Below are positions 1-54,754 of a stretch of 64,000 bases of DNA, piece after piece. The position numbers and the translations under genes are program-made. How positions within the stretch are numbered: position 1 is the first letter of the stretch; each line of letters starts with the position of its first letter. This DNA comes from a virus: the IMG/VR virus record IMGVR_UViG_3300027917_001949, positions 88,754 to 152,753 of that record. One strand, written 5' to 3'. The notes beneath the pieces were generated by a model, which worked only from the letters and a program-made list of their open reading frames with translations, was not told where the DNA came from and did not search any database.

Positions 1-450
1 AACATCACCTGAGCAACCCTCACCATAGTCACCGATACGGAAGCAATAAACGACTTTCCCAGGAAAATTTACCAGGAGTCTTTCGGCTCTCTCGATACAC
101 TTTTCCATGTATTCGCTATCCCATTCCCACTCATAATCCCACTTGTAGGCATCTGCTTCGGTTTCGTCATCGTAACGCCAACCACCTGTACGTATCAGTC
201 TGGCTAATTCACTCCTTTTTCCATTGCCGGTGAAGCACTTAAACCTTTCTTTGCACGAGTCGCACTCTGGTTGCGGTGGGTTGCAAAGTAATATTCCTTT
301 CTGTCGTTTCATCCACGTAAGTAATAACTCAGCTTCTTCAAGACTTGCACCTTTGGACATAAGTTCAATAGGCAGAGTCGGTCTCTTATCCAATACGATA
401 AGAAAACTAGCCGAACTGCTATTACTTACGAAACCACTACGAATTTTCAT
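1..450 (-). CDS. Phage protein starting MKIRSGFVSNSSSASF and carrying the CxxCxxRFxC module (partial; runs off left edge, absent from ORF track)
   Basis: Hand translation from ATG at 450: MKIRSGFVSNSSSASFLIV...LLCNPPQPECDSCKERFKCFTG...; no stop before position 1. Confidence 0.85.
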   Translation of the reverse strand, partial: MKIRSGFVSNSSSASFLIVLDKRPTLPIELMSKGASLEEAELLLTWMKRQKGILLCNPPQPECDSCKERFKCFTGNGKRSELARLIRTGGWRYDDETEADAYKWDYEWEWDSEYMEKCIERAERLLVNFPGKVVYCFRIGDYGEGCSGDV

Positions 451-4865: not shown

Positions 4866-5435
4866 CTATTCATAATCCTTTGATTGGAGTAACTTAATTG
4901 CATTAAGGAATTCATCAGCGTCCGGTAAGTCATCTAAGGCAAACACCGCCACAGGTTTAACGGTGTCGTAATCACCATCAGTATCGTAGTCATCAAACCT
5001 ACCAATAATAGTAATATCTTCCCTATCGTTCTTATCTCGGTCTATTTTCATACCACCTTCAAACACTTCAAACGTGTTCTCGTCAAGGTCAATCACATAT
5101 GCCCACTCGCAAAATAAACTGTCACCGGCGAAATCAATGTTGTTGACCAGCTTCAATTTTCTCTTGCTGTTTTGAATCATTGGCAATAGCTTGGCACTGG
5201 TATCACGGCTAAATTCTGCACGGTCTGCCAGTGTCTTCTGTGGTATTTTATCGTATTCTGCACCGGTTATCCATGTTAATTTGTCTACCTGTTTCTCAAA
5301 CTTCGGTCTGTCCCACGTATGCAAGAACTGTAAAATGTCAATCCCCTGACCGCTAGGATAACCATCCCATTGTCCGTATTGAGCAACCTTGTACTCACCA
5401 CCTTTATACACACAAATTAAATGTCTCGTTCCCAC
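4866..5435 (-). CDS. Conserved hypothetical phage protein (MGTR...QWDGYP type)
   Basis: GTG start at 5435 after GGAGGA; GTRHLI...AQYGQWDGYPSGQG...FCEWAYVIDLD. Confidence 0.75.
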   Translation of the reverse strand: MGTRHLICVYKGGEYKVAQYGQWDGYPSGQGIDILQFLHTWDRPKFEKQVDKLTWITGAEYDKIPQKTLADRAEFSRDTSAKLLPMIQNSKRKLKLVNNIDFAGDSLFCEWAYVIDLDENTFEVFEGGMKIDRDKNDREDITIIGRFDDYDTDGDYDTVKPVAVFALDDLPDADEFLNAIKLLQSKDYE

Positions 5436-5830
5436 TATAGTCCTCCCGTATGACGAAATTCTTTTTCGGTATAACAACGAAACCTATCGTAACAGTCATC
5501 ACATGACTTCACTGTAAAGGTTTCTTTAAGAAACTCCATACTATCGGTGTCACCATCCTCTGCCTTTTTCCTGATAAACTCAATCATCTTTGGTGATGCA
5601 CAGATTATGTCAGCATTGGCTTTGTCTTCTACCTCACAATTCAAACCATGCGTGAACCCTATGCTTCTTCCTTCTTGATGGAGTGTGGCAATTTCCATGA
5701 CCGCTTCTCCGGTAAGCTCTCGCAAGCATTTCGAAGCTTTTTTACGGACACAAATATCCTTGCATCCGTTGTCATCAGACGGATACCACTCGCCTTGTGT
5801 ATAGTTAGGTAACTTAATTCTAACTGCCAT
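5435..5830 (-). CDS. Hypothetical protein with C-terminal CxxCxxRFxC module
   Basis: Likely start MAVRIKL at 5830; ANADIICASP..., SCDDCYDRFRCYTE. Confidence 0.75.
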   Translation of the reverse strand: MAVRIKLPNYTQGEWYPSDDNGCKDICVRKKASKCLRELTGEAVMEIATLHQEGRSIGFTHGLNCEVEDKANADIICASPKMIEFIRKKAEDGDTDSMEFLKETFTVKSCDDCYDRFRCYTEKEFRHTGGL

Positions 5831-6530
5831 AACTGCTACGTGTTCCTTCGATGTATGTCCTACCCTCAATAATGAAGTCATCCAGTTCTTCTTCGTTGAG
5901 CCATTCCTTAATCTTGATGACTCGACCATTCCTAGTCGTCTCTCGTATGACCTTTATTTGATTTGGCATCTCTTTTGCAAGCATTTCAAAGTTGTTGCGA
6001 ACCACTCCAAGATAGTTAAAGTTTCTTTCGCACCACTTCACAGTACCTTCTTCCTGCCAACGTTCCTCAATTCGCTCAATGTTCCACTCTAATGGGGGAA
6101 GGAGAACGATGAACTTCTCCGGTTTTGGTGTGTTTGATATTTCATATTGAAAATCAGCATTAATAAGAATCTTCTCAGCGTAATGAGCCGGTAACCACCC
6201 CATCTCCACACATGTACGCACATATGCGGTGTCATCAAGAAAACACCTGTCGCCAATCACAACTGACTTAGGTGGTTGTGTCATCGCATAGTTAAGGTTC
6301 TCCCTATGTTCAATACAGTGTAGTGCGTTTCTCCAAAGTTGGCGGCTGACATTATCTGTCAATCCCTCCATATGAGCTATTTGCTCTTTAACCCGACCAG
6401 TATCAAATTGTTTTAAGTCATCTATCAGCGTTGATTTGCCGACCCCATGTGGACCACACAGATACACGATTTGTCTGTTGACCCTCGTATCAAACTCGAA
6501 TACTGGTGGTGGTGTTATTTCACAAGTCAT
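5820..6530 (-). CDS. Thymidylate/deoxynucleoside monophosphate kinase
   Basis: P-loop GPHGVGKST, VIGDR motif, lid-like ERIEER. Confidence 0.8.
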   Translation of the reverse strand: MTCEITPPPVFEFDTRVNRQIVYLCGPHGVGKSTLIDDLKQFDTGRVKEQIAHMEGLTDNVSRQLWRNALHCIEHRENLNYAMTQPPKSVVIGDRCFLDDTAYVRTCVEMGWLPAHYAEKILINADFQYEISNTPKPEKFIVLLPPLEWNIERIEERWQEEGTVKWCERNFNYLGVVRNNFEMLAKEMPNQIKVIRETTRNGRVIKIKEWLNEEELDDFIIEGRTYIEGTRSSYGS

Positions 6531-6883
6531 TCTTCGTCCTCCACAGTTACTTGAATGTGCCCAAATTCCGCAGGTACTTTAACGTGCCGTAACTCATCAG
6601 TATAAACCACGTCATTCTTTAATTCTGGTGTGGCTATTTTCTTAACTAAGTCACGGGCGGTCACATCTCGTAGTGACTTAACTCCCTTAAATGATGACAA
6701 TGGTATCTCAATAGGTTCATTACGGTCTGTAAAACACTGAAATCGCAGACTACATTGCCCGCACAACGTATCAATGCTTCGCTCTCGCCCGTAACAATGA
6801 TACTCCTTATATCTCTCGTTATCATAATTATGATTCTTGTCATCAAATACTATTCGTATTACCTGACCATGGTCTCTACTCAT
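6527..6883 (-). CDS. Hypothetical protein with internal CxxCxxRFxC module
   Basis: Likely start MSRDH at 6883 overlapping the UDG stop; CYG...LCGQCSLRFQCFTD. Confidence 0.75.
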   Translation of the reverse strand: MSRDHGQVIRIVFDDKNHNYDNERYKEYHCYGRERSIDTLCGQCSLRFQCFTDRNEPIEIPLSSFKGVKSLRDVTARDLVKKIATPELKNDVVYTDELRHVKVPAEFGHIQVTVEDEE

Positions 6884-7604
6884 AACAGTAAAACCTCTGT
6901 TTACATGATTTACATTTATTATCTCCCGTCCACCACTTCTCACACGTGTCTCGGAATGCGTTCATTTCGGCAATAATAGGTTTTGCATTAATGTCCTTGC
7001 TGAGTGGTGAATCAACTAGACGGAATTGCTTATCGACATGCTGATGTTGCATAGCATATTCGACAGCCTCTTTTATCTTAGTCCTTATATCTCTACCACG
7101 TTCGCTATTCTTTCCCCCACTATGAGCTATTGCCGCAGGATGGTATGACACGATTACATCATAATTTCTCCAATCAAAGGTAGTGCAGACAATCTCTTTC
7201 ATTGGTATCTTACCATTCCCACCAAGAGCTACGTACGGTACTTTACCCATACAAACAATGACTTCTGGTAATAGATTATCTATCTCCGCTATCATCCGTT
7301 CGTTGCACCACGTAATTTCTGCGTCGTTGGGGGTGCGATTATAGATTCGTCCGTCATTTACCTTTGTAGGTCTACATGTGACAGCGTTAACATAACTCGC
7401 ATCTTCACGCCTGCCACCACACTCCTCTATAATATCCATCAAGTCTCTGCCAGCAATCCCCACTAGAGGACGACCTTCTTGTGTCTCATTGAATCCTGGA
7501 GCTTCGGCAAGATAAAGTATCTTAGTGTCGTTTATCTCTGACGGCACAAGAACTGCTTGTTTTAGCGTACATTCGTCGCACTTACCCTTTGGTGCTTTTT
7601 CCAT
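6876..7604 (-). CDS. udg: Uracil-DNA glycosylase family 4 with an extra C-terminal CxxCxxRFxC module
   Basis: CDEC; LAEAPG, GRPLVG, NAVTCRP, YHPAA; tail KCKSCKQRFYCYE. Confidence 0.9.
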   Translation of the reverse strand: MEKAPKGKCDECTLKQAVLVPSEINDTKILYLAEAPGFNETQEGRPLVGIAGRDLMDIIEECGGRREDASYVNAVTCRPTKVNDGRIYNRTPNDAEITWCNERMIAEIDNLLPEVIVCMGKVPYVALGGNGKIPMKEIVCTTFDWRNYDVIVSYHPAAIAHSGGKNSERGRDIRTKIKEAVEYAMQHQHVDKQFRLVDSPLSKDINAKPIIAEMNAFRDTCEKWWTGDNKCKSCKQRFYCYE

Positions 7605-8050
7605 TTATCCTTGTCGTTCTCCCATTTATAACTGCCCATGCACTTCCGCCTTGGTCAACTGCCAGTCCACAATTAGGACATGCAACAATAGTCATCGCTA
7701 TCTCAGGTTCATTCTCCCATACAAATTCATGCCCACAGCTACTACACGTTATCTTGTCCATCATCCCATCCATTAAAAGGTTTGAAACATCTACCAGTTT
7801 TTAGGAAGTCATCTTCGGTCTCCATTATTGCTGGTTCTCTGTCAGGACAATAATGAAACCCTCTTTTAAGCATTTCTGCCTCGACAGTTTTTACCAACCT
7901 ATCTAGAAATTGCTTATAAGTTTCAGATGATTCTCTAAGATAGATAAACTCATGGTCACATACACCGGACATTGGCAATATATGTCTACCCTTAAACTTT
8001 TGGTCTTGCCAACCGTCTACGAATATCCAACCGTCTTTATATCGTGTCAT
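7582..8050 (-). CDS. Two small hypothetical genes (7582-7773 Zn-ribbon; 7742-8050)
   Basis: CSSC...CPNC in the first; tandem overlaps. Confidence 0.65.
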
Positions 8051-8379
8051 TCTAAATTCTCTGGATAGTTTTTATCGCTCTTATCGACCTTTACCACATC
8101 TTTACCGGTTGCCACATAAGAGTCATGTTTGCTCATCGTATAGTTTATTCTTCCCTCACCAAACATATACTCCGCCAACCCCTTTAAGTCCTTTATTCCG
8201 TGTTCAAGTGCCATCTCCTGAGAAATGAACACCTCATTCCGTTCCGATAGACATTTGAATCTCAATCGACAACCCACACACAGATATTTCTCTCTGCCAC
8301 GACAATCAAATCTCTCTGTTGTCGTTATTATATCATGGTTGTGAGTTACCTTTGGTAATTCAAGCTTAATTGTTACCAT
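8047..8379 (-). CDS. Hypothetical protein with CxxCxxRFxC module
   Basis: DCRGREKYLCVGCRLRFKCLSE. Confidence 0.75.
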   Translation of the reverse strand: MVTIKLELPKVTHNHDIITTTERFDCRGREKYLCVGCRLRFKCLSERNEVFISQEMALEHGIKDLKGLAEYMFGEGRINYTMSKHDSYVATGKDVVKVDKSDKNYPENLE

Positions 8380-9359
8380 ATTTCCACTGGTTGTCTGTCT
8401 CCCAAGATTCTTCCTCTTGATGTGCGTTGCACAAATCCATGTGTAAGGAGATAAGGCTCAACCGTCTCTTCCAATGTTGCTCGGTCAAGTCCGGTCATTG
8501 CCGATAAATTCTGAAGACCTATTGGTTTATCGGACAAACACTTCAGATATGCTCGGTCAGCGTTGTCCAACCCATCTGGGTCAATCTCCATGTCATCAAA
8601 CCATTGCTTCAGTAACTCTGGGGTTACTTGTTTGTCATTAAGGATTATCCGGTCATAGATTCGTTTGAAGAGGAAGAGTGCAATTCTCGCAACCGTCTTA
8701 CCTCGACGAGCTACCTCGTAGCTCACATAGTCTGGACAATCATACTTCAAGTTACGTGCCGCACCTGTTACCATCTTCTGTAATTCACCTACTGAGTAGG
8801 GTTGTAACACCAACGATACGAAACGAGAACGAAGAGGACCACTCAGACTACCTGCCGTAGTTGTTGCAGCGAGTACTGTTTGTGTCCCCTTATCCATGAC
8901 AGTCAATAACCATTCCTCGTCTCGAATTGTGTGTACCTCATCTACGACCACAACTTGAGAGGTCGGAAAGTCATCAATGTCACGTAAGTTGACAGCAGTA
9001 ACATAATCATTACGACCTATCATGTCAGCAAATATCCTTGCCAAGGTGGTTTTACCGAGACCGAAACTGCCGCTAAATAATACGTGCTGTACCGGAATTC
9101 CATGCACCTTTGTTGCTTTAAGTATTGTGTCAAGTTCATCCTTAATGACCTCTTGACCTATAAAACTCTTAAAATCAGTTGGTGTAATCAGGTCATTCCA
9201 GGCACGTTTAGAACCCTTACTCCTTCGTCTTGGCTTATCCTGTTTCTTTATACATTCCTTACATATATATCGACCATCATCAAGCGGAGTTAATTTACTA
9301 TTATTTCTACCGCAGATATAACATTTATCATATATATCAAAGAATTTAAAGATGTTCAA
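8373..9359 (-). CDS. ruvB: RuvB-like Holliday junction ATPase with N-terminal C4 zinc finger
   Basis: FIGQE, GSFGLGKTT, VDEVH, AATT..GSLSGPLRSRF, winged-helix C-terminus EPYL...VQRTSRGR; N-terminal CYIC...ICKEC. Confidence 0.85.
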   Translation of the reverse strand: MNIFKFFDIYDKCYICGRNNSKLTPLDDGRYICKECIKKQDKPRRRSKGSKRAWNDLITPTDFKSFIGQEVIKDELDTILKATKVHGIPVQHVLFSGSFGLGKTTLARIFADMIGRNDYVTAVNLRDIDDFPTSQVVVVDEVHTIRDEEWLLTVMDKGTQTVLAATTTAGSLSGPLRSRFVSLVLQPYSVGELQKMVTGAARNLKYDCPDYVSYEVARRGKTVARIALFLFKRIYDRIILNDKQVTPELLKQWFDDMEIDPDGLDNADRAYLKCLSDKPIGLQNLSAMTGLDRATLEETVEPYLLTHGFVQRTSRGRILGDRQPVEIW

Positions 9360-9382
9360 ATTTTCCTCACCCGTTTATTTGT

Positions 9383-9418
9383 TGGGGGATACCAGTTTAG
9401 TAGGGTTAGTATCCCCCA
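9383..9418. other. 10-bp perfect inverted repeat upstream of ruvB (hairpin; possible terminator or attenuator)
   Basis: TGGGGGATAC...GTATCCCCCA. Confidence 0.45.
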
Positions 9419-9637
9419 CCACCTAAATCAACTTTCTTTTCATCCTCATTTACTCAAGTTAAGTATTATAACAAATCCTACAAAATTTCTGGTGACTGAC
9501 ACCAGTCCTCAAAATAACCTCTCATCGTATTGGCGACTCGTTCACCAAGGTCAGTTAAATCTTTACATGCCAATTTATCAGACCAAAACTTGAAACTCAC
9601 CTCCGAACATATTTGGGTTCTATTACCCCACATATCT

Positions 9638-9666
9638 ATTATACCACACAACTGTTCTCATGTCAA
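9638..9666 (-). promoter_or_regulatory. Sigma70-type promoter
   Basis: TTGACA-17-TATAAT with TG extension. Confidence 0.85.
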
Positions 9667-9669
9667 CCC

Positions 9670-10233
9670 CTAGTAATGGGCATCTGCTGGTACTGCATAT
9701 ATATTGAGGTCGGCATATTCTTTTCTTGGTGACCCGTCATTGAGTACACTCCACTTCGATAAAACATTTTTTAGATGTTCCTCGTTACGAATACCCTCAC
9801 CGTCTTGGTCGTATAGTTTTATAGTATAACCAGCATACCTGCCACAATTATAACACCAATGTCTGAATTGACCATCATCCATTAATTCATCATCCGTTTT
9901 AATGTTTATGTCATTTCTGATGTACCTGATGTTCTCTATAAAATGTTCCTTCGTATACCCCATCGCCTCGTCAAGAATACTATTAATTTTTCCGGTGAAG
10001 CAACGAAATCTTTCACTACAAAAATCACACTTAACAGACCCAAATTCACCACATATCTTCGTAGCCACGGGAAGCTCACCCCACCGTGCAGTGGCATATG
10101 TTTCTTTAAAGGTACTGTAGTAATCGAATGGGAAATGTGATTCACCACAAAGGTCATCAAAGATACTCTCTGCCTGTGCTAGAGCATCTTCCTCATCCTC
10201 AGCGTAGACTAACGCATATATAACTGTGTGCAT
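9670..10233 (-). CDS. Hypothetical protein with internal CxxCxxRFxC module
   Basis: FDYY...RWGELP-[ICGEFGSVKCDFCSERFRCFTG]-...YDQDGEGIR...VPADAHY. Confidence 0.8.
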   Translation of the reverse strand: MHTVIYALVYAEDEEDALAQAESIFDDLCGESHFPFDYYSTFKETYATARWGELPVATKICGEFGSVKCDFCSERFRCFTGKINSILDEAMGYTKEHFIENIRYIRNDINIKTDDELMDDGQFRHWCYNCGRYAGYTIKLYDQDGEGIRNEEHLKNVLSKWSVLNDGSPRKEYADLNIYAVPADAHY

Positions 10234-10682
10234 TATTCTTCACCCCATCCAAGTTTGTCTAAACCAAATTCTCGTACAATCTTATTCGCAGTTTTCTCAC
10301 CCCACCCCGATGCTACCGACCTCAATGAAAGGGTGATTATGTTGTGAGAGTATTCTTTCACATCAACGTATGGTAGCTCATTCAGAATCAAGTTCTTCCA
10401 CTGTAGTAACGTCCTACCTGTTCCGTTCGTTGTATCAACTTGCTTCCACTCCTCTGCCGTCAGGATAAGGTCATCACGATGCGTCCAGCACTTGAAACGA
10501 GCAGGGCATCGATTACATGTCATACGTGGACATTTCTCCGTAACAATTTCATTCCATCCGTTTTCTGGGTTCAAGTATTCAACACGAATCTGACGAACTT
10601 TCCTACGTACTCGTCGCTTCTTTGGTTCTTGTGATGCCAGTACTCGGTAGCGTTTATTCCACGCTTCTTCTACCTTGTTCAT
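10233..10682 (-). CDS. Hypothetical protein with CxxCxxRFxC module
   Basis: Likely start MNKV at 10682; KCPRMTCNRCPARFKCWTH. Confidence 0.75.
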   Translation of the reverse strand: MNKVEEAWNKRYRVLASQEPKKRRVRRKVRQIRVEYLNPENGWNEIVTEKCPRMTCNRCPARFKCWTHRDDLILTAEEWKQVDTTNGTGRTLLQWKNLILNELPYVDVKEYSHNIITLSLRSVASGWGEKTANKIVREFGLDKLGWGEE

Positions 10683-10687
10683 ACCGG

Positions 10688-11149
10688 TTATCTCTCCGTA
10701 AAACATTTGAATCGATGTAAACAAGTATTGCAATTGTTACCTAACTCCATGTTTACCTGTGACCCCGCATCGTTTAATAACGAAGCAAGCTGGATGAGTT
10801 GCCCTTTTGTAAAGTCATTGGCAGTAAAGATACGTGGTACGGTCTCTTGAACAGCTTCGACCCAATCTTTACTTTCCTTTAACCCCCAATATGTGACTTC
10901 ACGTACCGCACGAATTACCGCAATCTTATTCATCCCAATATCGGTAATCTTCATGGTACACATGTTAGGTTGATACGCTGTTCTACGATACTCGGTATCA
11001 CATGTTAGGCATTTGATTATCATTTCAGCTTCGTTAGTGTCGGTGTTGACTAACCGGATATAAAATGCTTCTTGCCCACAGCGTTCGCATGTAGCGTGTT
11101 CGAGTACGGTGTCTCCTATCAGCATTTTATTGGGTGGTGGTGGTTTCAT
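10688..11149 (-). CDS. Zn-ribbon + ribosomal L7/L12 C-terminal-like domain + CxxCxxRFxC module
   Basis: CERC...CLTC; NKIAVIRAVREVTYWGLKESKDWVE (L7/L12 CTD signature); NCNTCLHRFKCFTER. Confidence 0.8.
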   Translation of the reverse strand: MKPPPPNKMLIGDTVLEHATCERCGQEAFYIRLVNTDTNEAEMIIKCLTCDTEYRRTAYQPNMCTMKITDIGMNKIAVIRAVREVTYWGLKESKDWVEAVQETVPRIFTANDFTKGQLIQLASLLNDAGSQVNMELGNNCNTCLHRFKCFTER

Positions 11150-11962
11150 GTAAGTACTCGTCCTTAATCTCTATAGTCAAATCAAACACGTTAGGCATCT
11201 CCATACCTATATAGTCACCAAAGGTCTCTATCAGATTCCACATCTGCCACTCACTCCATCCGTCCTCATCCTCTTGGATTAATGGTCGGTTATACCATAG
11301 TGAATCAGGAGTACGTGAAGTTAGCGGAGTATGTGGCAATTGGCACATTAGTTCGTCACGTTTTTGTTGCAACACCTTTCGTCCATGTTCTGTTAATCTG
11401 ACTCTTACATTGTCGTTAATGTTGAACATCATACGATAATCACCCAATCATCGTTTTTACCGACAAGGATAACACCAGTTCCGTTGCCCTCTTTTACTTC
11501 TTCGTCACCGGTAGGAATTTCTACACCATATTTCTCAAACTCGTACCAACTGGCAAGACCGTACGAAATATAACTACCCTGCATTAGCTCATATATCTCG
11601 TCCCCACTATACTCACTGGTATCAGGGTCTCGTAATACTAATAATGTTATTGCCGATTCCTCATTACTCCACCCACGTAATTCCATACCATGTTCACGAG
11701 CGTAGTCTCGAATGATATTGACTTTACCCACCGTCCAACTGTATTTGTTGTTACCGAACGCATGGTACGCATACTGTGCCGGAGGATACCCTCTCATTTT
11801 TCTCATTTCCTCAAGGTATCCATCAATATCGTCACTGGTAAACCTAGCTTCTAACTCTGCCAGACCCGTCTTTTCAATCTTAATATCCAGAGTCGGTGGT
11901 ATAGGAGACTCTGCAAGCACAATATTATCATTGTGTAGTAGTTTTATTTTATCGACTGCCAT
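11127..11962 (-). CDS. Two hypothetical genes (11127-11447, 11429-11962)
   Basis: Continuous overlapping ORFs in the operon. Confidence 0.7.
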
Positions 11963-12469
11963 CTATATTGCTTCCTTCATATCTTTTAACTCATTATATG
12001 AGTCCACAACAATATCTGTATCGTTCGCCCACTGCCAATTACCGGTGGTACATTTCACACCGTATGGGTATCCATTACACTCAAGGTTGCTTATCAGGAT
12101 ACCATACTCACGCTCATTATTCAATGCCTTCAACTGGTCAACAGTCCATCTCTCACCGAACAGTATCTCTGGTGACTCATTCTTTTTCTTACCCCTAATT
12201 TCCTCTGTCTTGTGAGATGTAGCACACTTAAATCTCTGACCACAGTCTTGGCACACATCTTCCAACCCCAACCGGTCAGCTTTGAACTCAATATCCTCGT
12301 CACATAGGACGTTTTGTGCTGAAATTACTTCTTGGTCGTAGAAGTACAAACCATATGTACCTCTTGGTATGTCGTCTAAGTTGGCAGGTATGCGAGTAGT
12401 CACCTCTCGTGTTTCGCTCTCTGCCACAAAAGCTCCTGGTTGATAAAAAGTTACGTAATGTTTTAACAT
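11963..12469 (-). CDS. Hypothetical protein with internal CxxCxxRFxC module
   Basis: MLKHYVTFYQPG...VCQDCGQRFKCATS...ILISNLECNG. Confidence 0.8.
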   Translation of the reverse strand: MLKHYVTFYQPGAFVAESETREVTTRIPANLDDIPRGTYGLYFYDQEVISAQNVLCDEDIEFKADRLGLEDVCQDCGQRFKCATSHKTEEIRGKKKNESPEILFGERWTVDQLKALNNEREYGILISNLECNGYPYGVKCTTGNWQWANDTDIVVDSYNELKDMKEAI

Positions 12470-12723
12470 CGAATCACTCTCTCCACTAATTTCACTTGGT
12501 ACGTCCCACCATATTCTTCCCTTACGACTCTGCCGCTTCGTACCAAGCTTTTAATTACTGACTCTGGTAGTGCTTTATATTTATGCTTCTCGTCAAACCT
12601 TGTCGCAAAACACGGAAATCTTGCCGGACAATCATCACACTGGTCATCACAGGTAAGAATGCACATATCGTCAAGTAGACACTCTTCCTGACACTCGCTT
12701 CCACAATCAATTGATATTTTCAT
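12463..12723 (-). CDS. Small Cys-rich protein with CxxCxxRFxC module
   Basis: CILTCDDQCDDCPARFPCFAT. Confidence 0.75.
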   Translation of the reverse strand: MKISIDCGSECQEECLLDDMCILTCDDQCDDCPARFPCFATRFDEKHKYKALPESVIKSLVRSGRVVREEYGGTYQVKLVERVIRC

Positions 12724-13575
12724 TCTATTGGTGTACCAACTCCCTCTCTATCTACTGCAAAGCAGTCCTCGAAACCACGTCGTTTTTTGTACTCAGTCAA
12801 CTCGGTTTCATCGTCGTATGCAACCACTTCGAGAAGAGTGTTGCTGTCTAGGAGTGCCAAGTTTTCATGTTCAGGGTATACATTATACATAACTTTCGTA
12901 AGATGTAACCCTAAAAACAATGACTCAGTGAACACAGGACGAATCCCGTATTGCTGACACACAAATATAAGTTCCGGTAAGTTGGTCGCTGCCTTGATTG
13001 TTCGTATCATCCTGTCCTCATAAAAGTTATTTCTAGTTGCTGTTCTCCCCGCACATTCAACACTTGTTGCACGTTCATGATAGTCCATTGACCATGTGAT
13101 ACGTTGTGATTATAATCATATTTTAACATACCTTGACACGATATGTCAAATCTTGTCGGAACAATTGCCTTAGTCTTTAATATTGACGACACGGGATGAC
13201 TATACACCACATGCCTTGCTCGTGTCATGCACTTGAACCTGTTCTCACAATCGTCACAATAGTCACCGATTATGTCTTTGGTAGATAATGATAAAGCCAT
13301 TTTCATTGTATTGCTCGGTTACGGATGTAGTACATGACGTACCCCAAATCAGGGGAACGAAATGTATATCCCATATCTTCCTCAGTATCATTCTCGTCCT
13401 CGTAGTCATACCGCAACCACTCAATCTCGTGTTCGTAGTCACTCTCTGCCACTCGCTTTGCTTCATCAATATCATGATAAAGACCCATCGAATGTTCGGT
13501 AGTATACTCTGTTCCCATCGGTCCGCCAAGATGAGTTAAGTCCTCGTAGATGAGTTCGTACACACTATCGGTCAC
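12720..13575 (-). CDS. Three small hypothetical genes (12720-13088; 13007-13306 with CxxCxxRFxC; 13303-13575)
   Basis: YCDDCENRFKCMTR in the middle gene; tandem overlaps. Confidence 0.7.
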
Positions 13576-13933
13576 GATACACCCCCGCTTGCCGGAGCTT
13601 GTTCAAGTCAAACTCGGCTTCTCTGTTCGTCCAGCAGATGAATCTCATGTTACATTCGGTACACTGGTCGGGGTAGTTCTTACATAGTATTGGTACTTTC
13701 TGACCCCAATGTGATGCGTCCACACCCATGATTAATCTGCCCTGACCGTCCACAGTCAATCCGTCACGACGTAACGCATCGATGTGTTTACATGTACGGT
13801 TACCACGCTGGTTGTATATCCAGCTTGGGCAGTTACAGGAGAATAAGCCATTTTGGTCTACCTTGATGGTGTAGTTTCGTCTGCCACTAGACGATGGTAC
13901 TTCTGCAAAAAAGTTATATTTCATTAATCCCAC
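13565..13933 (-). CDS. SWIM zinc-finger protein with C-terminal CxxCxxRFxC module
   Basis: SSSG..YTI...SCNCPSW...RTCKH (SWIM); LCKNYPDQCTECNMRFICWTN. Confidence 0.8.
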   Translation of the reverse strand: MGLMKYNFFAEVPSSSGRRNYTIKVDQNGLFSCNCPSWIYNQRGNRTCKHIDALRRDGLTVDGQGRLIMGVDASHWGQKVPILCKNYPDQCTECNMRFICWTNREAEFDLNKLRQAGVYRDR

Positions 13934-14501
13934 TCCAGATTAATAGTATCACATTCTTCCATAATTGGACACAGTGTGCCCTGTTTCTGAGAAATCGAAC
14001 ATCCTTTACACTTACTGAAGTCAACGATTCTCGTTTCTTCTTCAGTATAGTCGTAATCGTTGAGGGATGTCATCATCGCAGCTTGTGATGCCTCATCGAT
14101 GTCACTAACATCAATATCATAAAATCCCTTGAGCTTCTTGTATATTCTTATTTCCATACTGCACTTCCTACCCAACTCGGATTGCCAATTAATACTCCCC
14201 GTTCATCTATTTGGCGTGAACCATGATTAAATTTACGACAATAATGACACATGAATTTCAAGTTATAGTTGTACTGATGTTCGTTTATCGCAAATATACG
14301 GTTACAATACGGACATTGCATAAGATAGTAACCCTGTAGTTCTGCCCCGATTACGATGGTTTTCGTTGGTTCAATATTCTCCAACACCAACCACCGGTCT
14401 GTTCTCGTAGTGTAACATTTAAACCGCCACGGACACTCGTCGCAGTTTCCCTCACATTCACCCCAAATTGCAGTATTACCAAAGTGTGTTATTATCTTCA
14501 T
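13924..14501 (-). CDS. Two Cys-rich genes (13924-14175; 14148-14501 with N-terminal CxxCxxRFxC plus Zn ribbon)
   Basis: ECEGNCDECPWRFKCYTT; CPYC...CHYC. Confidence 0.7.
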
Positions 14502-30972: not shown

Positions 30973-31350
30973 TCATTTTGGTCTGACATAATAATTCTGG
31001 TCTAATTCCTCAACGTCTGTATCGTCGCCCCACGAGTTACTATTACCTTCCTCGTATACGTCTCTACCATTATCCCACACCAGTTCCCGTGCCTCATCCT
31101 TGTTCGTTGCATAGACGATACAACTATCGTAGCCGGAATAATACTCCATCACATGGTATCGTTTCATTTTAACAGTATGACACTTGAATCGAAAGTCACA
31201 ACACTGACACGCATCGATAGGTGTGCCAATAATATATCCACATTTAAGTATTTCCTGCCGGAGTTTTTCACCACGCATTTCACAATACCAACATGAATCA
31301 TATTGGTTATGTATTCGCCCACATTCAGGACATTTCCAAGTATTAGCCAT
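30973..31350 (-). CDS. Zn-finger + CxxCxxRFxC protein, paralog of 30305-30766
   Basis: CPECG...CWYC; KCG...ACQCCDFRFKCHTV. Confidence 0.75.
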   Translation of the reverse strand: MANTWKCPECGRIHNQYDSCWYCEMRGEKLRQEILKCGYIIGTPIDACQCCDFRFKCHTVKMKRYHVMEYYSGYDSCIVYATNKDEARELVWDNGRDVYEEGNSNSWGDDTDVEELDQNYYVRPK

Positions 31351-33326: not shown

Positions 33327-33746
33327 TCATAAGTCCTTTTTCCTTTTCACATCGAAGCAACGAACCAGATATTTCTGCCGGTTTTCCATCTGGTCATGTC
33401 TGAACTTACCTCTGGCATCCCACCTGTTTCGTGATTCAAGCGTGGTTTGATATTCATTTGGTTGACCGGCATTAACAGTGATAAGTTCATCGGTTTTTTC
33501 ATACGGAAACATACCCCATTCAGCAAGTATGTCAAAAGCCGTCTCGATATACTGTTCACCGTAACCGTAAGTAAATGGTACTCTACCTATCAACTCATTA
33601 TTTACATAAACATTTACGCTATGGTACGTGTTGCCATTTGTTCGTTCAAACCATCTCTTTGCTTCAATCATCACGATACAATTGCCAGCACGATTTCCGG
33701 TCAAACATTTGAATCGATTATTGCATTGTTCACATACATTATCCAT
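33327..33746 (-). CDS. Hypothetical protein with N-terminal CxxCxxRFxC module
   Basis: Likely start at 33746 after AAGGAG: MDNVCEQCNNRFKCLTG...RWFERTNGNTYHS...YGYGEQY. Confidence 0.8.
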   Translation of the reverse strand: MDNVCEQCNNRFKCLTGNRAGNCIVMIEAKRWFERTNGNTYHSVNVYVNNELIGRVPFTYGYGEQYIETAFDILAEWGMFPYEKTDELITVNAGQPNEYQTTLESRNRWDARGKFRHDQMENRQKYLVRCFDVKRKKDL

Positions 33747-36236
33747 TGCCGTCTCCTTCATCCGGTATGACATTATCGAATGCCGTACTTCGTTTCTCAA
33801 GGTTTATTTCGTATACCGTACACGTACAATCGATTGTTGTCATTGTAACATCATATACGTCACCCAATGTATGTAGTAGCCAAGTTAATTCGTTCAGGTC
33901 AAGTTCCATGTTTTGTGGTGTGTGTAGGTGTAGTTTAATTTTAGTGCCCATTAATCCCACCTTACCGAATTGAACAGGAAGTATTTATACTCGCCACCAG
34001 ACTTCGGAAACTGCTTGTTGAAATCCTGTGCCAGTTTGTTCACCGCTTCCTTCATCCAGTCGAACTTAGCTTTCCTATCGTCAAGCCGTTGCTGTTCTTC
34101 CTGTTCTGTCATTGGTTTCGCATGTCTCATGTTGCTACCCCACTCTGGCGCCATTGTTCACCTCGCTGTTCTATGCCCTACGACCACCTTATAGTCTCGC
34201 AAGTTCACTATGATTATCTCGTTGTGCATCAGTTCCCGTGCCGTATCTATCGGTATACCCAACTCTGCCAGGATTTTCGCTGTTCCATTCGGACCTTCGC
34301 CACCATAACCACAGGTACAACCAGACAGCAGAATATCATCTTGTGTGCCAATAATCATGACGTTCCACTCAAGAGGATATGACATACCATCATCCTCTAC
34401 CATTTCATGATAAACGCCATCCTTACGAGCGTACACTGATAGAGGTTCACCGAGTCTACTTTTGTTCTCTTGCCAGAACTCAAGACTCCTTCGTGTAATT
34501 CCGTGCCCTTCGTCTTTAAGAATCATCTGACACCCCCAATTACTTTTAGCTTCTTGAATCGTTCCGCCACACGAGTCTGTGGTACGGTTATATGACCGGA
34601 TTTAACGCCATCCATAAAAGCAAATAATGTTTCGACATATTTATCTCTACGGTGGTCACAAACAATCCGATACTTATCTTTCTTATTAACTCCCTTTGCC
34701 AGTGACATTATCTTACCCCCAACTTTCGCTGTGCAACAACGAGCGATGCTTGTATGTTCTGCCTTTGCGATAGCTTTGTGATAACCTCACGTTCGACCTT
34801 GCCATCTTTTATCTGCTTTATCAGTTCTACCAGAACATCAGCAACTCGATTGATGCCACTGTGGACACCATCACCCGACTGGTATCGTTCAGCATCCCTG
34901 ACCTTCTGTAGCCAATAATTGACTACTCCATTCTCATCAGAATTACTTGCTCGATTTTCTGTTGACCGGTGTGTGCCAAGTTCTCGCTTACGTTCTTTCT
35001 GTTTACTCATGGATGCAACTCCCAACTAAAATTATGCCAGTACCCGCACTTCATGCACTCGAATGCGGCGTATACATTATCCGGTTCAATGTGTCCATTT
35101 TCATCGTAACTATGCCACGTATCCAAACTAAGTTGTATGTTCCTATGTGCCACTGTGTTCTTAACCGGACACACGTAACTCAGTTTGAGTTCAAAGCCAT
35201 TAATAGTCATACTATTATGTATCATTTTGCCGTGAAATAGATTGCATCTATCCTCTCATTATTATTATACACCCTGCCGCTTAATTAATCAAGTCTCGGT
35301 GTGATGTGTCTCGGAGTTATCTGACAGCGTATGCCAAATATCACCTGTTCAACATCTCTCACGTCATTTAAAAAGCCGTCCGCTTCCTCTACCGTATCAA
35401 ATTCGTGGGTATGTATCTCTTCTCGGTAGTCCTCATACATTTGCCCGTTGTTTGACTTGACGAGTAATAAATACTTTGAGTGTTCTAGCAGTTTCAATGC
35501 ATCTTCTGCCACCGCTAGTGCTTCGTTGAAACTGTTCGCTTCCTCTAAACCAGTATCGTCTGCCATTCCTACTCCCCTGTGTAGTATTTCTCGTGCCGTT
35601 TTGTAGTTCATTATTTCACTATCTCCAATGCTAGATAATGGTAGTCAAATTGCCGACAGTAGTCAAACCACTGTTTACGTGTCATAAATATCGGATGCTC
35701 ACAACCATTGGCATCAATCTCTATTGCGTGGGTAAATGTTACGCTACCACATTTAGGGCATGACCATCGAACCAACTCTTGCATTGTAGTTATACTATAA
35801 CAATGACTTGATTCAATGACGCCAGACCCACATTCACAAAATTCACTCATAGCCATACATACCTATTAAACCGTAATTCACCGAATAACCCACCGGACGC
35901 ATACAGACGATAGCCAACTGTTCTACCATCATGAGTCACCGGTTCTCGGTAATGTGTGAATATCCAGTTCAAGCCGTACTCCTTTCGTTGTTCCTCTGTT
36001 AATTGTTCTTTAGCCATGTTGTTCTCCTTTTATTCTAATGGATATAACTCTGACCATGTTCTAAACCTGTCGCCATCTTTCAACGGTTGCTTGAATTTAA
36101 CTCCAAGCCAATCCTCATATATTCCGTATGTATCACCTTTCATAACATAGTCTATGTCGGCTTCATATCTGTTCAATAACTCTTTGAGTTCTTTCTTAAA
36201 TTCTACTAACTTCTGCTTGTCGTCCATTTTAGCCAT
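33739..36236 (-). CDS. Array of about nine small hypothetical genes
   Basis: Tandem minus-strand ORFs with RBS-like purine tracts. Confidence 0.6.
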
Positions 36237-52720: not shown

Positions 52721-54754
52721 ATGAGAGTAATTAAGCGTGATGGAAGAATTGTTAAGTATAACCCAGATAAGATAGTTCTTGCTGTTACGAAAGCTATGAA
52801 GTCAATTGGTTTGTCTGATGATAAGATACCAAATGACATAGCCCAGAAAGTAACTGATAATATAAACGGTAGCAAAGAGATTTCGGTAGAGGATATACAG
52901 GATAAGGTTGAGAATGCCCTGATAGGGTTGGGCAATGCTAAACTTGCCAAAGAATATATTCTCTACAGAGCACGTCGAGCGCAGGTTCGTGGGTTCAGGG
53001 AAGCTATCGGTGTACAAGACGACGAATTGAAACTAGGTGTCAATGCTCTATCCTTACTTGACAAGCGTTATTTGAAGTCATTTGATGGGAAAAAGGAGAC
53101 ACCGTCACAGATGTTTAGGAGAGTTGCCAAACACGTTGCTTCAGTGGAGAAACAATACGGGTCAAATCCAGACTATTGGAGTAGGGTGTTTTACAATTTA
53201 ATGGCAAACCAGATATTTTTACCGAATACACCGTGTCTGGCAAATGCTGGCAACGTAGACCTAAACTTTTTGTTTGCCTGTTATGCGTTTGAAGTTGGTG
53301 ATTCGATGGAAGAAATTCTTCAGACTGCAAAAGATTGTGGAATGGTGCAGAAAACAGGTGGTGGAGTAGGTTTACATCTATCTAAATTAAGACCATCTGG
53401 TGACTTTGTAAAATCGACTGAGGGTATCGCTAGTGGACCTATTGACTTTATGAGGATATTTGATACCGTGAGCGACGTTATTAAACAGGGAGGTATTAGA
53501 CGTGGTGGTAACTTAGGCTTATTGCTTGTTAACCATCCAGATATTATCGAGTTTATCAAATGCAAAAACGATGAAACAAGGTTTAATAATTTTAATATAT
53601 CAGTTGCTTTTACTGATGAATTCATGCGGTGTGTTGAGAATGACGAGTTGTTTGAGTTGGTTAATCCAAAAGATAACTCAGTCGTCACGAAAATTAATCC
53701 GAGGCATCTTTTCAGGTTCATTGCAGAGTCTGCTTGGAGCAATGGAGAACCAGGATTCGTGTTCTGGGATAGAATGGAACTTGACAATCCAACCCCCGAC
53801 CAAGGTCATCTGATTAAGAACCTGTGTGGAGAGCAAGATTTACTTCCTTATGAAGCGTGTTGTCTTGGTTCAATTAATCTCGCTAAATTTGTTGAGGATG
53901 ACCAGATTGTGTACACCTCTCTCAGAAAAGTGGTAAATCATTCTGTGAGATTCTTGGATGACGTTATTGATGCTTCTAACTATCCGCTTGAAAGAATAGC
54001 AGATACAGTACATAATAATAGGAAGATAGGTTTAGGGGTCATGGGATTTGCTGATATGCTATTCCTGTTGGGTATACCTTATGACTCAGAAGAAGCTGAA
54101 GATGTGGCACACCATGTGATGTCATTTATAAATACAGAAGCTAGACGTGCGTCTGCAAAATTAGCGGAGGATAAGGGGTCGTTTCCAGCGTTGACGACAT
54201 CTGTAATTAATGAACCGAGAAGAAACGCAACCCTTACTACTATCGCACCAACTGGCAGTATTAGTATTATAGCAGAAACATCTAGCGGGATAGAACCAGC
54301 ATTTGCAATAGTATATCAGAAAACAAATATTCTTGAGAGTAACACCTTTTTTGAGATAAATCCTGTGTTTGAGGAAGTTGCCAAACGTGAGGGGTGGTAT
54401 TCTCAATCATTGATTAATAAGATAATAAAGAACGGTGGAATTGTTGCCGGTATACAAGACATTCCAGATAAGTGGCAACGTGTTTTCAGAACTGCTCTTG
54501 AGATAGCTCCTGAGTGGCACGTCAGGATGCAGGCAGCGTTCCAAAATAATATTGATAATTCAATCTCTAAGACAGTCAATTTACCATCATACGCAACGGT
54601 TGAAGACGTAGAACGAGTCATATTACAAGCGTACGCATCCGGCTTGAAGGGTCTTACAGTGTTTCGTGATAAGAGTCGAACTAAACAAGTATTAGAAACG
54701 TTGTGTATAGAGTGTGAGGACGACGTTTGTCCAATTACTCTTGACGACTCTTAA
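52721..54754 (+). CDS. nrdJ: Class II (B12-dependent) ribonucleotide reductase with ATP cone
   Basis: VIKRDG ATP cone, PNTP, QGGIRRG, NLCGEQ, IGLGVMG, TIAPTGSIS, SISKTVN, C-terminal Cys. Confidence 0.92.
   Translation: MRVIKRDGRIVKYNPDKIVLAVTKAMKSIGLSDDKIPNDIAQKVTDNINGSKEISVEDIQDKVENALIGLGNAKLAKEYILYRARRAQVRGFREAIGVQDDELKLGVNALSLLDKRYLKSFDGKKETPSQMFRRVAKHVASVEKQYGSNPDYWSRVFYNLMANQIFLPNTPCLANAGNVDLNFLFACYAFEVGDSMEEILQTAKDCGMVQKTGGGVGLHLSKLRPSGDFVKSTEGIASGPIDFMRIFDTVSDVIKQGGIRRGGNLGLLLVNHPDIIEFIKCKNDETRFNNFNISVAFTDEFMRCVENDELFELVNPKDNSVVTKINPRHLFRFIAESAWSNGEPGFVFWDRMELDNPTPDQGHLIKNLCGEQDLLPYEACCLGSINLAKFVEDDQIVYTSLRKVVNHSVRFLDDVIDASNYPLERIADTVHNNRKIGLGVMGFADMLFLLGIPYDSEEAEDVAHHVMSFINTEARRASAKLAEDKGSFPALTTSVINEPRRNATLTTIAPTGSISIIAETSSGIEPAFAIVYQKTNILESNTFFEINPVFEEVAKREGWYSQSLINKIIKNGGIVAGIQDIPDKWQRVFRTALEIAPEWHVRMQAAFQNNIDNSISKTVNLPSYATVEDVERVILQAYASGLKGLTVFRDKSRTKQVLETLCIECEDDVCPITLDDS

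Follow-up and report, generated by a model that had tools for sequence, protein, structure and literature searches.

The 64,000-nucleotide stretch analysed here (the window) comprises bases 88,754–152,753 of IMG/VR record IMGVR_UViG_3300027917_001949, an uncultured phage genome of 152,753 bp that is rated 99% complete (G000; the labels G001–G009 denote the other IMG/VR records with which it was compared). The GC content of the window is ca. 41%, and genes lie on the minus strand up to ca. 42 kb and on the plus strand beyond. Megablast of positions 8000–14000 against GenBank phages gave no match, and no close relative at the DNA level was found among them. Two minus-strand open reading frames (ORFs), designated here the family A carrier (9670..10233, 187 amino acids) and the family B carrier (11963..12469, 168 amino acids), contain a 14-residue motif, C-x2-C-x2-[RK]F-x-C-[FYW]-[TS]-x-[RK] (the module), which recurs in many other proteins of this phage. 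A sequence-only reading of the window had regarded the module as a segment inserted into or appended to conserved proteins whose homologs lack it, and had proposed its repeated independent acquisition by an unknown spreading mechanism. Here we examined homologs, predicted structures, and flanking DNA of the module carriers.

Inserts in two conserved protein families

In the family A protein, which bears a precomputed but unconfirmed Pfam label (PF25958), RWGELP forms residues 50–55 and the motif residues C69–K82. A word-based search found nine homologs, of which seven close ones (48–54% identity) contained the module and two distant ones (33–36%) did not. When IMG/VR was searched with the single protein, no locus was obtained; the alignment used as a query succeeded and recovered 24 family A loci, three with the module and 21 without it. 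The 21 module-free proteins have just one to three cysteines over their whole length. In alignment A4 (21 sequences), nine sequences carry the insert and the twelve more distant ones show a clean 18-column gap directly after the invariant G65. The gap corresponds to an in-frame insert of 18 residues, S66–I83 (9985..10038, minus strand), so that the module does interrupt this protein after RWGELP, as had been claimed. Cys61, whose codon (10051..10053, minus strand) is outside the inserted segment, lies eight residues upstream of the first motif Cys. It is Cys in the bearers only, with A, I, V, or N in the other A4 sequences, and is likely the fourth ligand of the site discussed below.

A maximum-likelihood tree of family A, from which the insert columns were left out, placed the nine bearers in one clade (96/91) with a single state change. 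After midpoint rooting, this clade was sister to two module-free sequences and lay inside the module-free family. The AlphaFold2 model of the carrier had a mean predicted local distance difference test score (pLDDT) of 84.4, while the insert scored 53–57 and was positioned between a strand (58–60) and a helix (80–111).

The family B carrier belongs to a widespread phage family of ca. 126-amino-acid proteins for which no function is named. FYDQEV constitutes its residues 43–48 and GKKKNES its residues 93–99, and the module had been described as part of about 40 additional amino acids between these two blocks. All seven close homologs (53–99% identity) align through the module. From 1.84 billion representatives, a profile search recovered 515 homologs, most of which match the query separately at ca. 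1–52 and ca. 85–167, and among the best 150 of these 515, 147 lack the motif and three have it. The median length was 126 amino acids in the non-bearer matches versus 151–168 in bearers. Alignment A5 places a gap of 35 amino acids at ca. V48–C82 (12224..12328, minus strand), between FYDQE and the conserved GK.KN.S block, which bears out the described interruption. The insert contains the upstream Cys56 and the motif cysteines C73, C76, and C82, and the last two motif residues, A83–T84, are just outside it. In P0019, a more distant bearer, the insert occupies the same position, and the motif there is an R-Y variant.

In a family B tree of 94 sequences, five bearers formed a supported clade (95), and six bearers together with nine non-bearers formed a supported set of 15 rows; two changes are needed, and one origin is also possible. 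The bearers are a small set nested among more than 140 module-less representatives. The AlphaFold2 model (overall pLDDT 86.6) shows one compact domain, with residues 1–50 and 90–168 at 93–98 and residues 51–89 at 46–62; the low-scoring stretch joins strands 40–51 and 89–96 and forms the tip of a beta-hairpin. In the models, both inserts are predicted to lie between two secondary-structure elements of carriers that are confidently modelled outside them. Foldseek searches of the PDB with the two carrier models gave no match at E ≤ 0.001.

The motif, its distribution, and the further cysteine

A six-frame scan with C-x2-C-x2-[RK]F-x-C found the motif in 27 ORFs of the window, on the coding strand every time. 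Over the phage genome, a degenerate DNA pattern gave 45 matches and the reversed control pattern gave none, and an ORF-based count put the number of carriers at 48–49. The motif is real and far above chance. From an anchored alignment of 48 copies, the consensus C-[DE]-x-C-x-x-R-F-[KR]-C-[FYW]-T-x-[RK] was obtained, and beyond the 14 residues these copies share no conservation save a further Cys at a variable distance. Third codon positions vary freely, the third base of the Thr codon having 0.03 bits and every Arg codon being used; therefore, the constraint is on the protein and not on DNA or RNA. No Pfam family matched the module in 20 whole carriers (E ≤ 0.1) or in ten 32-residue module pieces (E ≤ 10), and the module is undescribed in Pfam. 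A literature search for a CX2CX5C motif in phages found nothing relevant. Of 26 carriers scanned against PHROGs, only six had a family, with function unknown in all but the uracil-DNA glycosylase-like match to a DNA polymerase.

Eight motif-rich records (55–153 kb), with 20–67 carriers each, provided 335 carriers, which fall into 57 all-motif families, 10 mixed families, and 112 singletons. Orthologs of these phages have 42–67% protein identity, and their motif state is concordant in about nine of ten pairs. Multiple matches in an IMG/VR pattern scan were confined to a handful of contigs of 134–153 kb, of which four additional ones contained 26–52 motif copies each. A 20-base motif pattern run against 596 Gb of bacterial and archaeal genomes (one per prokaryote species) yielded single matches per contig in unrelated taxa, a chance level, and no motif-rich cellular genome or prophage was among the matches listed. 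The presence of the module in the family A protein is linked with motif richness of the whole genome: the three records with the module in this protein (G001–G003) have 18–32 pattern matches each, and of the records with a module-free version, G004 has none and G005 has one, which is interrupted by an in-frame TGA.

Of the 335 carriers, 334 have a further Cys, which lies within 12 residues upstream of the motif in 211, usually at a distance of 3–12 residues. Among carriers with orthologs, the proportion was 202 of 203, compared with a background of 76–86% in comparable ORFs. In addition, the four mapped additions (family A, family B, and the two described below, the glycosylase tail and the insert of 33327–33800) brought, or came with, a fourth Cys. 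The near-universal further Cys and its gain together with the motif in these four cases fit a four-ligand metal site. From this cysteine pattern, the motif probably binds a metal, for which zinc and an iron-sulfur (Fe-S) cluster are the candidates. The His and alternative Cys variants found in orthologs (see below) lean slightly toward a structural zinc site. A NifU-domain gene (PF01106, 1.8e-28) is located at G000:86767-86967 on the minus strand, ca. 1.8 kb before the window. It is absent from five other motif-rich genomes of the clade, each at least 90% complete. Since only G000 has this gene, it gives no clade-wide support to an Fe-S reading, and NifU was rejected as a clade-wide Fe-S partner.

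Protein ends and other carriers

The ORF at 6876..7604 (minus strand, 242 amino acids) matched the Pfam UDG profile at 8.8e-19 and PDB 1L9G at 3.4e-19 (3–4e-19 for 1L9G/1VK2), and its C9, C12, C77, and C100 align to the Fe-S cysteines of the family. Profile and aligned cysteines together identify it as a family-4 uracil-DNA glycosylase (UDG). Its domain ends near residue 190: the Pfam match covers residues 25–166, 1L9G is aligned to residue 173, and tblastn homologs reach at most residue 217. A 45-residue C-terminal tail (6879-7013, minus strand) with the pattern C220-x10-C231-x2-C234-x5-C240 extends beyond homolog coverage, and the motif occupies residues 231–242. Four phages have the tail, and three (G006, G008, and G009) do not. 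The tail-less UDGs end immediately behind K-Q-x-[RKQ]-L-[LF], and their stop codon is overlapped by the following gene, which encodes a small carrier. Therefore, the UDG tail begins exactly at the old stop. The junction DNA revealed no clear frameshift path. Fusion of the UDG with its neighbour was tried as an origin of the tail and rejected: a profile of the four tails ranked the small genes beside the tail-less UDGs no higher than other carriers.

The protein encoded at 10688..11149 (minus strand, 153 amino acids) matched the L7/L12 C-terminal domain (PF00542) at residues 66–132 with an E-value of 3.3e-10 and a score of 40.6 bits against a cut-off of 25.9. Its last 14 residues (140–153) are the motif, within a module tail of 18 residues (10691-10744, minus strand) that is kept in the G002 and G003 orthologs. 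Here, as in the UDG, the module is an extra tail after a complete domain, in agreement with the sequence-only reading. Since only the C-terminal domain matches and the N-terminus is a Cys4 ribbon in place of the dimerisation domain and hinge, we rejected an assignment to ribosomal protein L7/L12 and regard the protein as an L12 C-terminal-domain-like phage protein. The C-terminal domain of L7/L12 is the part that recruits translation GTPases, and the phage protein might mimic a translation factor.

The protein at 33327..33800 (minus strand) resembles phrog_6246 from residue 41 on, and its tblastn matches in 183 phage records begin at residues 43–45. Alignment to annotated proteins from two phages, one of Pseudomonas and one of E. 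coli, revealed a 21-residue gap at V22–I42 (33675-33737, minus strand), a segment that contains the motif and a downstream Cys41. The homologs keep a short leader of their own; therefore, the earlier description of an extra head holds for the addition of a segment on the N-terminal side and fails for a pure head, the segment being an N-proximal insert.

PHROG coordinates suggest that two more carriers have the module as a terminal addition. In the phrog_32202-like protein (30973..31350, minus strand), the family domain spans residues 65–118 and the motif is at residue 48, pointing to an N-terminal extension. The phrog_1273-like protein (5435..5929, minus strand) has its family match at residues 42–119 and the motif at residue 143, as expected for a C-terminal tail. 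A further carrier (10233..10733, minus strand), with the motif at residue 73 of the long ORF, is without homologs: a search with 10233-10682 among 5.8 billion clusters found only itself. ORF 1-450 (minus strand; 169 amino acids), which extends past the window start (G000:88694-89203), combines a serine-rich leader with the module at residue 63. The N-terminal leader, M-K-x-R-x-G-F-V-S-N-S-S-S, is common to this ORF and other proteins of the phage.

Mixed states were also seen among orthologs. The serine-leader family retains an intact C-terminal module in three phages; the second Cys has changed to Tyr in G008 (Cys-to-Tyr), and G006 has no module. Another type of site is found at the equivalent position in orthologs of two other families, namely C-x2-C-x2-R-L-x-H (G009) and C-x2-C-x10-C (G002 and G007). 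These alternative sites suggest remodelling in place and a module that is interchangeable with other metal-type sites.

The ortholog of a head-bearing carrier in G009 (G009:103846-104286) appeared to lack the head. This absence was rejected as an artefact of ORF calling, the motif being encoded in frame ahead of the first canonical start. In this gene, the motif comes only six codons after a stop, with no preceding ATG, GTG, or TTG, which suggests a non-canonical or damaged start codon. The carrier at window positions 13565-13933 (122 amino acids) corresponds to the C-terminal end of a 477-amino-acid ORF in G001 (G001:146192-147625), the first 385 residues of which resemble a 917-amino-acid protein of the same phage. 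This resemblance points to a fusion in G001 or to an insertion ahead of the carrier. A 328-residue protein at window 8373-9359 (minus strand), RuvB-like AAA+ by eye (GxxGxGKT plus a C-terminal RuvB-like region), carries at its N-terminus a C-x2-C ... C-x2-C ribbon, a Cys site distinct from the module. Farther along the window, at 52721-54754 (plus strand), there is a class II (B12-dependent) ribonucleotide reductase, whose best phage matches are from Moorella and Microcystis phages (41–43% identity).

Origin of the module and comparison with known systems

We compared the DNA around the 49 copies of the module in the genome. Information was close to zero outside −9 to +42 nucleotides from the first Cys codon in 60-nucleotide flanks, and neither a target duplication nor a shared flank repeat was seen around the copies, as the sequence-only reading had noted. 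Pairwise flank identity was 10–21 of 60 nucleotides, about the level of unrelated DNA. The mean pairwise identity of the 42-nucleotide cores was 22.59, compared with 22.58 under a null in which synonymous codons were drawn independently, and the maximum was 33 (null range 30–35). No excess of synonymous identity among copies was detected in seven of the eight motif-rich genomes (P = 0.08–0.91). In G006, there was a weak excess (P = 0.02–0.04, uncorrected), which was lost on correction for eight genomes. Two tandem small genes of this genome (G006:33486-33752 and 34288-34545; SH3-like by eye), otherwise dissimilar, share 35 identical nucleotides from the first Cys codon of the motif into the first Thr codon. 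This identity may reflect a recent gene conversion confined to the motif, although its statistical support is weak. A mobile DNA element (insertion sequence, miniature inverted-repeat transposable element, or homing cassette) was rejected: there are no conserved ends, repeats, or target-site duplications, and synonymous sites, those of G006 apart, show no excess. With uninformative flanks and synonymous identity at chance in seven of eight genomes, the proposal of a special spreading mechanism is unsupported.

Homologs do not run continuously through the module. Gaps appear in families A and B and in 33327-33800, the tail is absent from three UDGs, and the module occupies loops or ends in at least seven unrelated families; the bearers are nested or form a single clade in the trees. 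These observations support repeated, independent, and derived acquisition, and on this point the comparison with homologs sides with the sequence-only reading. The explanation that we favour, with a probability of roughly 0.6, is that the module is a compact metal-binding clasp added many times by ordinary mutation routes and kept by lineage-specific selection. Three cysteines from C-x2-C-x5-C plus the nearby fourth, usually 3–12 residues upstream, would hold the metal. One clade of uncultured phages (134–153 kb) would have added this clasp separately to unrelated protein families, placing it where the carrier fold is undisturbed, such as in surface loops, on a beta-hairpin tip, or at either terminus of the protein. 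The routes may have included short in-frame loop insertions, extension of the reading frame past an old stop into a gene-dense region full of small module genes, stepwise remodelling of existing Cys sites, and duplication, also in tandem, of small carriers. The additions would then have been kept by selection acting in this lineage only. The metal binding, the choice of metal, where the inserted DNA (54 nucleotides in family A and ca. 105 in family B) came from, and how selection acted are parts of the proposal that we infer. What the data show are the homolog gaps, the nested bearers in the trees, the positions in loops, the fourth Cys gained alongside, the association of module-bearing proteins with motif-rich genomes, and the missing signature at the DNA level. 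Ordinary routes are seen within the clade, namely a tail from a stop position, Cys-to-Tyr decay, conversion of a Cys site, and tandem duplication of small carriers.

Several observations weigh against this explanation. The conservation of R6, F7, T11, and the aromatic residue at position 10 comes close to that of the cysteines, a level that exceeds the needs of a bare metal site and would also suit recognition by a partner. The confidence of AlphaFold2 is low over both inserts, so the models lend no support to the putative four-Cys geometry. The UDG tail, motif aside, has no similarity to the small adjoining genes that a fusion model predicts as donors. The unrooted family A tree fits one loss as well as one gain. 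Finally, the compared genomes are just 42–67% identical at the protein level, and because the events are old, any junction signature, and with it the traces of a dedicated copying mechanism, could have been erased.

The conservation of the non-cysteine residues raises the alternative that the module is an address label: a clade-specific factor (chaperone, protease, modifying enzyme, or packaging receptor) would recognise C-x2-C-x2-RF-x-C-aromatic-T, with the metal secondary or absent, and grafting of the motif would enrol any protein in one common pathway. R6, F7, the aromatic residue at 10, T11, and R/K13 are nearly invariant in 48 copies that have no other similarity, the module is found in exposed loops and at termini, and 32% of the 335 carriers end within six residues after the motif, like C-terminal tags. 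Moreover, the phage already has a shared tag in the serine-rich leader, and ORF 1-450 carries both. However, a linear tag needs no further Cys, and one is present in nearly every carrier and was gained outside the insert in family A. The alternative Cys or His sites at the same position in orthologs of two families also speak for a metal site, no candidate partner gene was found, and of six complete genomes of the clade, just one has the NifU-domain gene. We consider the label doubtful, though the least improbable of the alternatives. Still less likely is a mobile coding cassette, that is, a dedicated process such as short-patch templated recombination by a phage recombinase that pastes motif DNA into new genes. 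The family A insert, which is little more than the motif plus four residues and has no counterpart in homologs, is most simply seen as inserted motif-coding DNA, and in G006 the 35-nucleotide identity of the tandem genes is confined to the motif and accompanied by the weak synonymous excess. However, the G006 signal fails the eight-genome correction and comes from an array of tandem paralogs, for which ordinary gene conversion would be expected, and the other seven genomes, including that of the window, show no such excess. A cassette is also at odds with the unconserved flanks without target duplication and with insert lengths that differ (18, 21, and ca. 35 residues) and have nothing in common outside the 14 residues.

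Loss in place of gain, with families born with the module and most lineages deleting it precisely, appears very improbable. The unrooted family A tree, with one change in either direction, accommodates it, whereas in family B the three bearers among the best 150 homologs are nested among non-bearers, so that loss would need several identical precise deletions. Loss would further require that ancestors of at least seven unrelated families already had the motif, among them those of family-4 UDG and the L7/L12 C-terminal domain; solved or curated members of these families end without it, and non-bearer proteins sit in phages without any motif. Label and cassette could also be joined: the module would be a portable handle read by a clade-specific factor, enrolling repair enzymes, translation-factor mimics, and host-takeover proteins in a shared pathway, with copies written by an active templated short-patch process of which the 35-nucleotide identity in G006 would be the first trace. 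We regard this combination as a long shot, on a level with the cassette.

Under any of the readings in which the module was gained, these phages offer a natural case in which one tiny module was grafted repeatedly into loops and ends of unrelated folded proteins in a single virus lineage. Module-free homologs serve as built-in controls, and the matched pairs in families A and B and in the UDG with and without a tail can be used to examine what a four-Cys clasp adds. The mapped insertions mark loop positions that tolerate insertion. If the module holds an Fe-S cluster or contacts a common partner, the carrier genes would be tied to one cofactor or pathway, which would change the reading of many unannotated small proteins of these phages.

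Ligand sets of the form C-Xn-C-X2-C-X5-C that bind a [4Fe-4S] cluster are found in WhiB-like proteins (Wbl, PF02467), FNR, the cluster loop of endonuclease III/MutY, and the 'iron staple' of AddB/Cas4/Dna2, and many Wbl sequences have C-x2-C-P-V-R, with an Arg three residues after the second Cys. The phage module has the same C-x2-C-x5-C spacing in all copies with a fourth Cys at a variable distance, and, like these Wbl proteins, an Arg three residues after the second Cys. In contrast to Wbl, it has no conserved turn or basic tail, as nothing is conserved past +13 and a third of the carriers end within six residues. Unlike the Wbl, FNR, and Cas4 sets, its fourth Cys is usually just 3–12 residues away, and it is found on ca. 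180 unrelated carrier groups, not in one family. An assignment to Wbl was rejected, as the Pfam searches of 20 whole carriers and ten module pieces described above gave no Whib match. The iron staple was likewise rejected, no RecB-type (PD-(D/E)XK) nuclease family having been found in any scanned carrier.

The gain and loss of zinc ribbons and zinc knuckles in conserved proteins, such as those of the bacterial ribosome, was reportedly the subject of 'Two C or not two C: recurrent disruption of Zn-ribbons...' by Makarova, Ponomarev and Koonin in 2001. As in those proteins, some orthologs have a small Cys4 site that others lack or retain in degraded form while the fold is kept, for which the UDG tail, the Cys-to-Tyr change, and the alternative Cys sites are examples. 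The difference is that in the ribosomal proteins pre-existing ribbons were lost family by family, whereas the phages would have gained one motif in many families, including clean loop insertions. In haloarchaea, small zinc-finger proteins with C(P)xCG motifs form proteome-wide sets (PMC2253796, PMC10117724). The phage carriers are similar in that many small unrelated proteins of one genome have a short, putatively metal-holding Cys motif. However, the haloarchaeal sets are cellular and consist of generic paired CxxC knuckles, whereas the phage motif combines one CxxC with an isolated Cys, has R, F, aromatic, and T residues that are fixed, and has been grafted into larger conserved domains as well. 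By analogy with these systems, the process in the phages resembles the gains and losses already known for small metal sites, its scale being unusual and its signature single and fixed.

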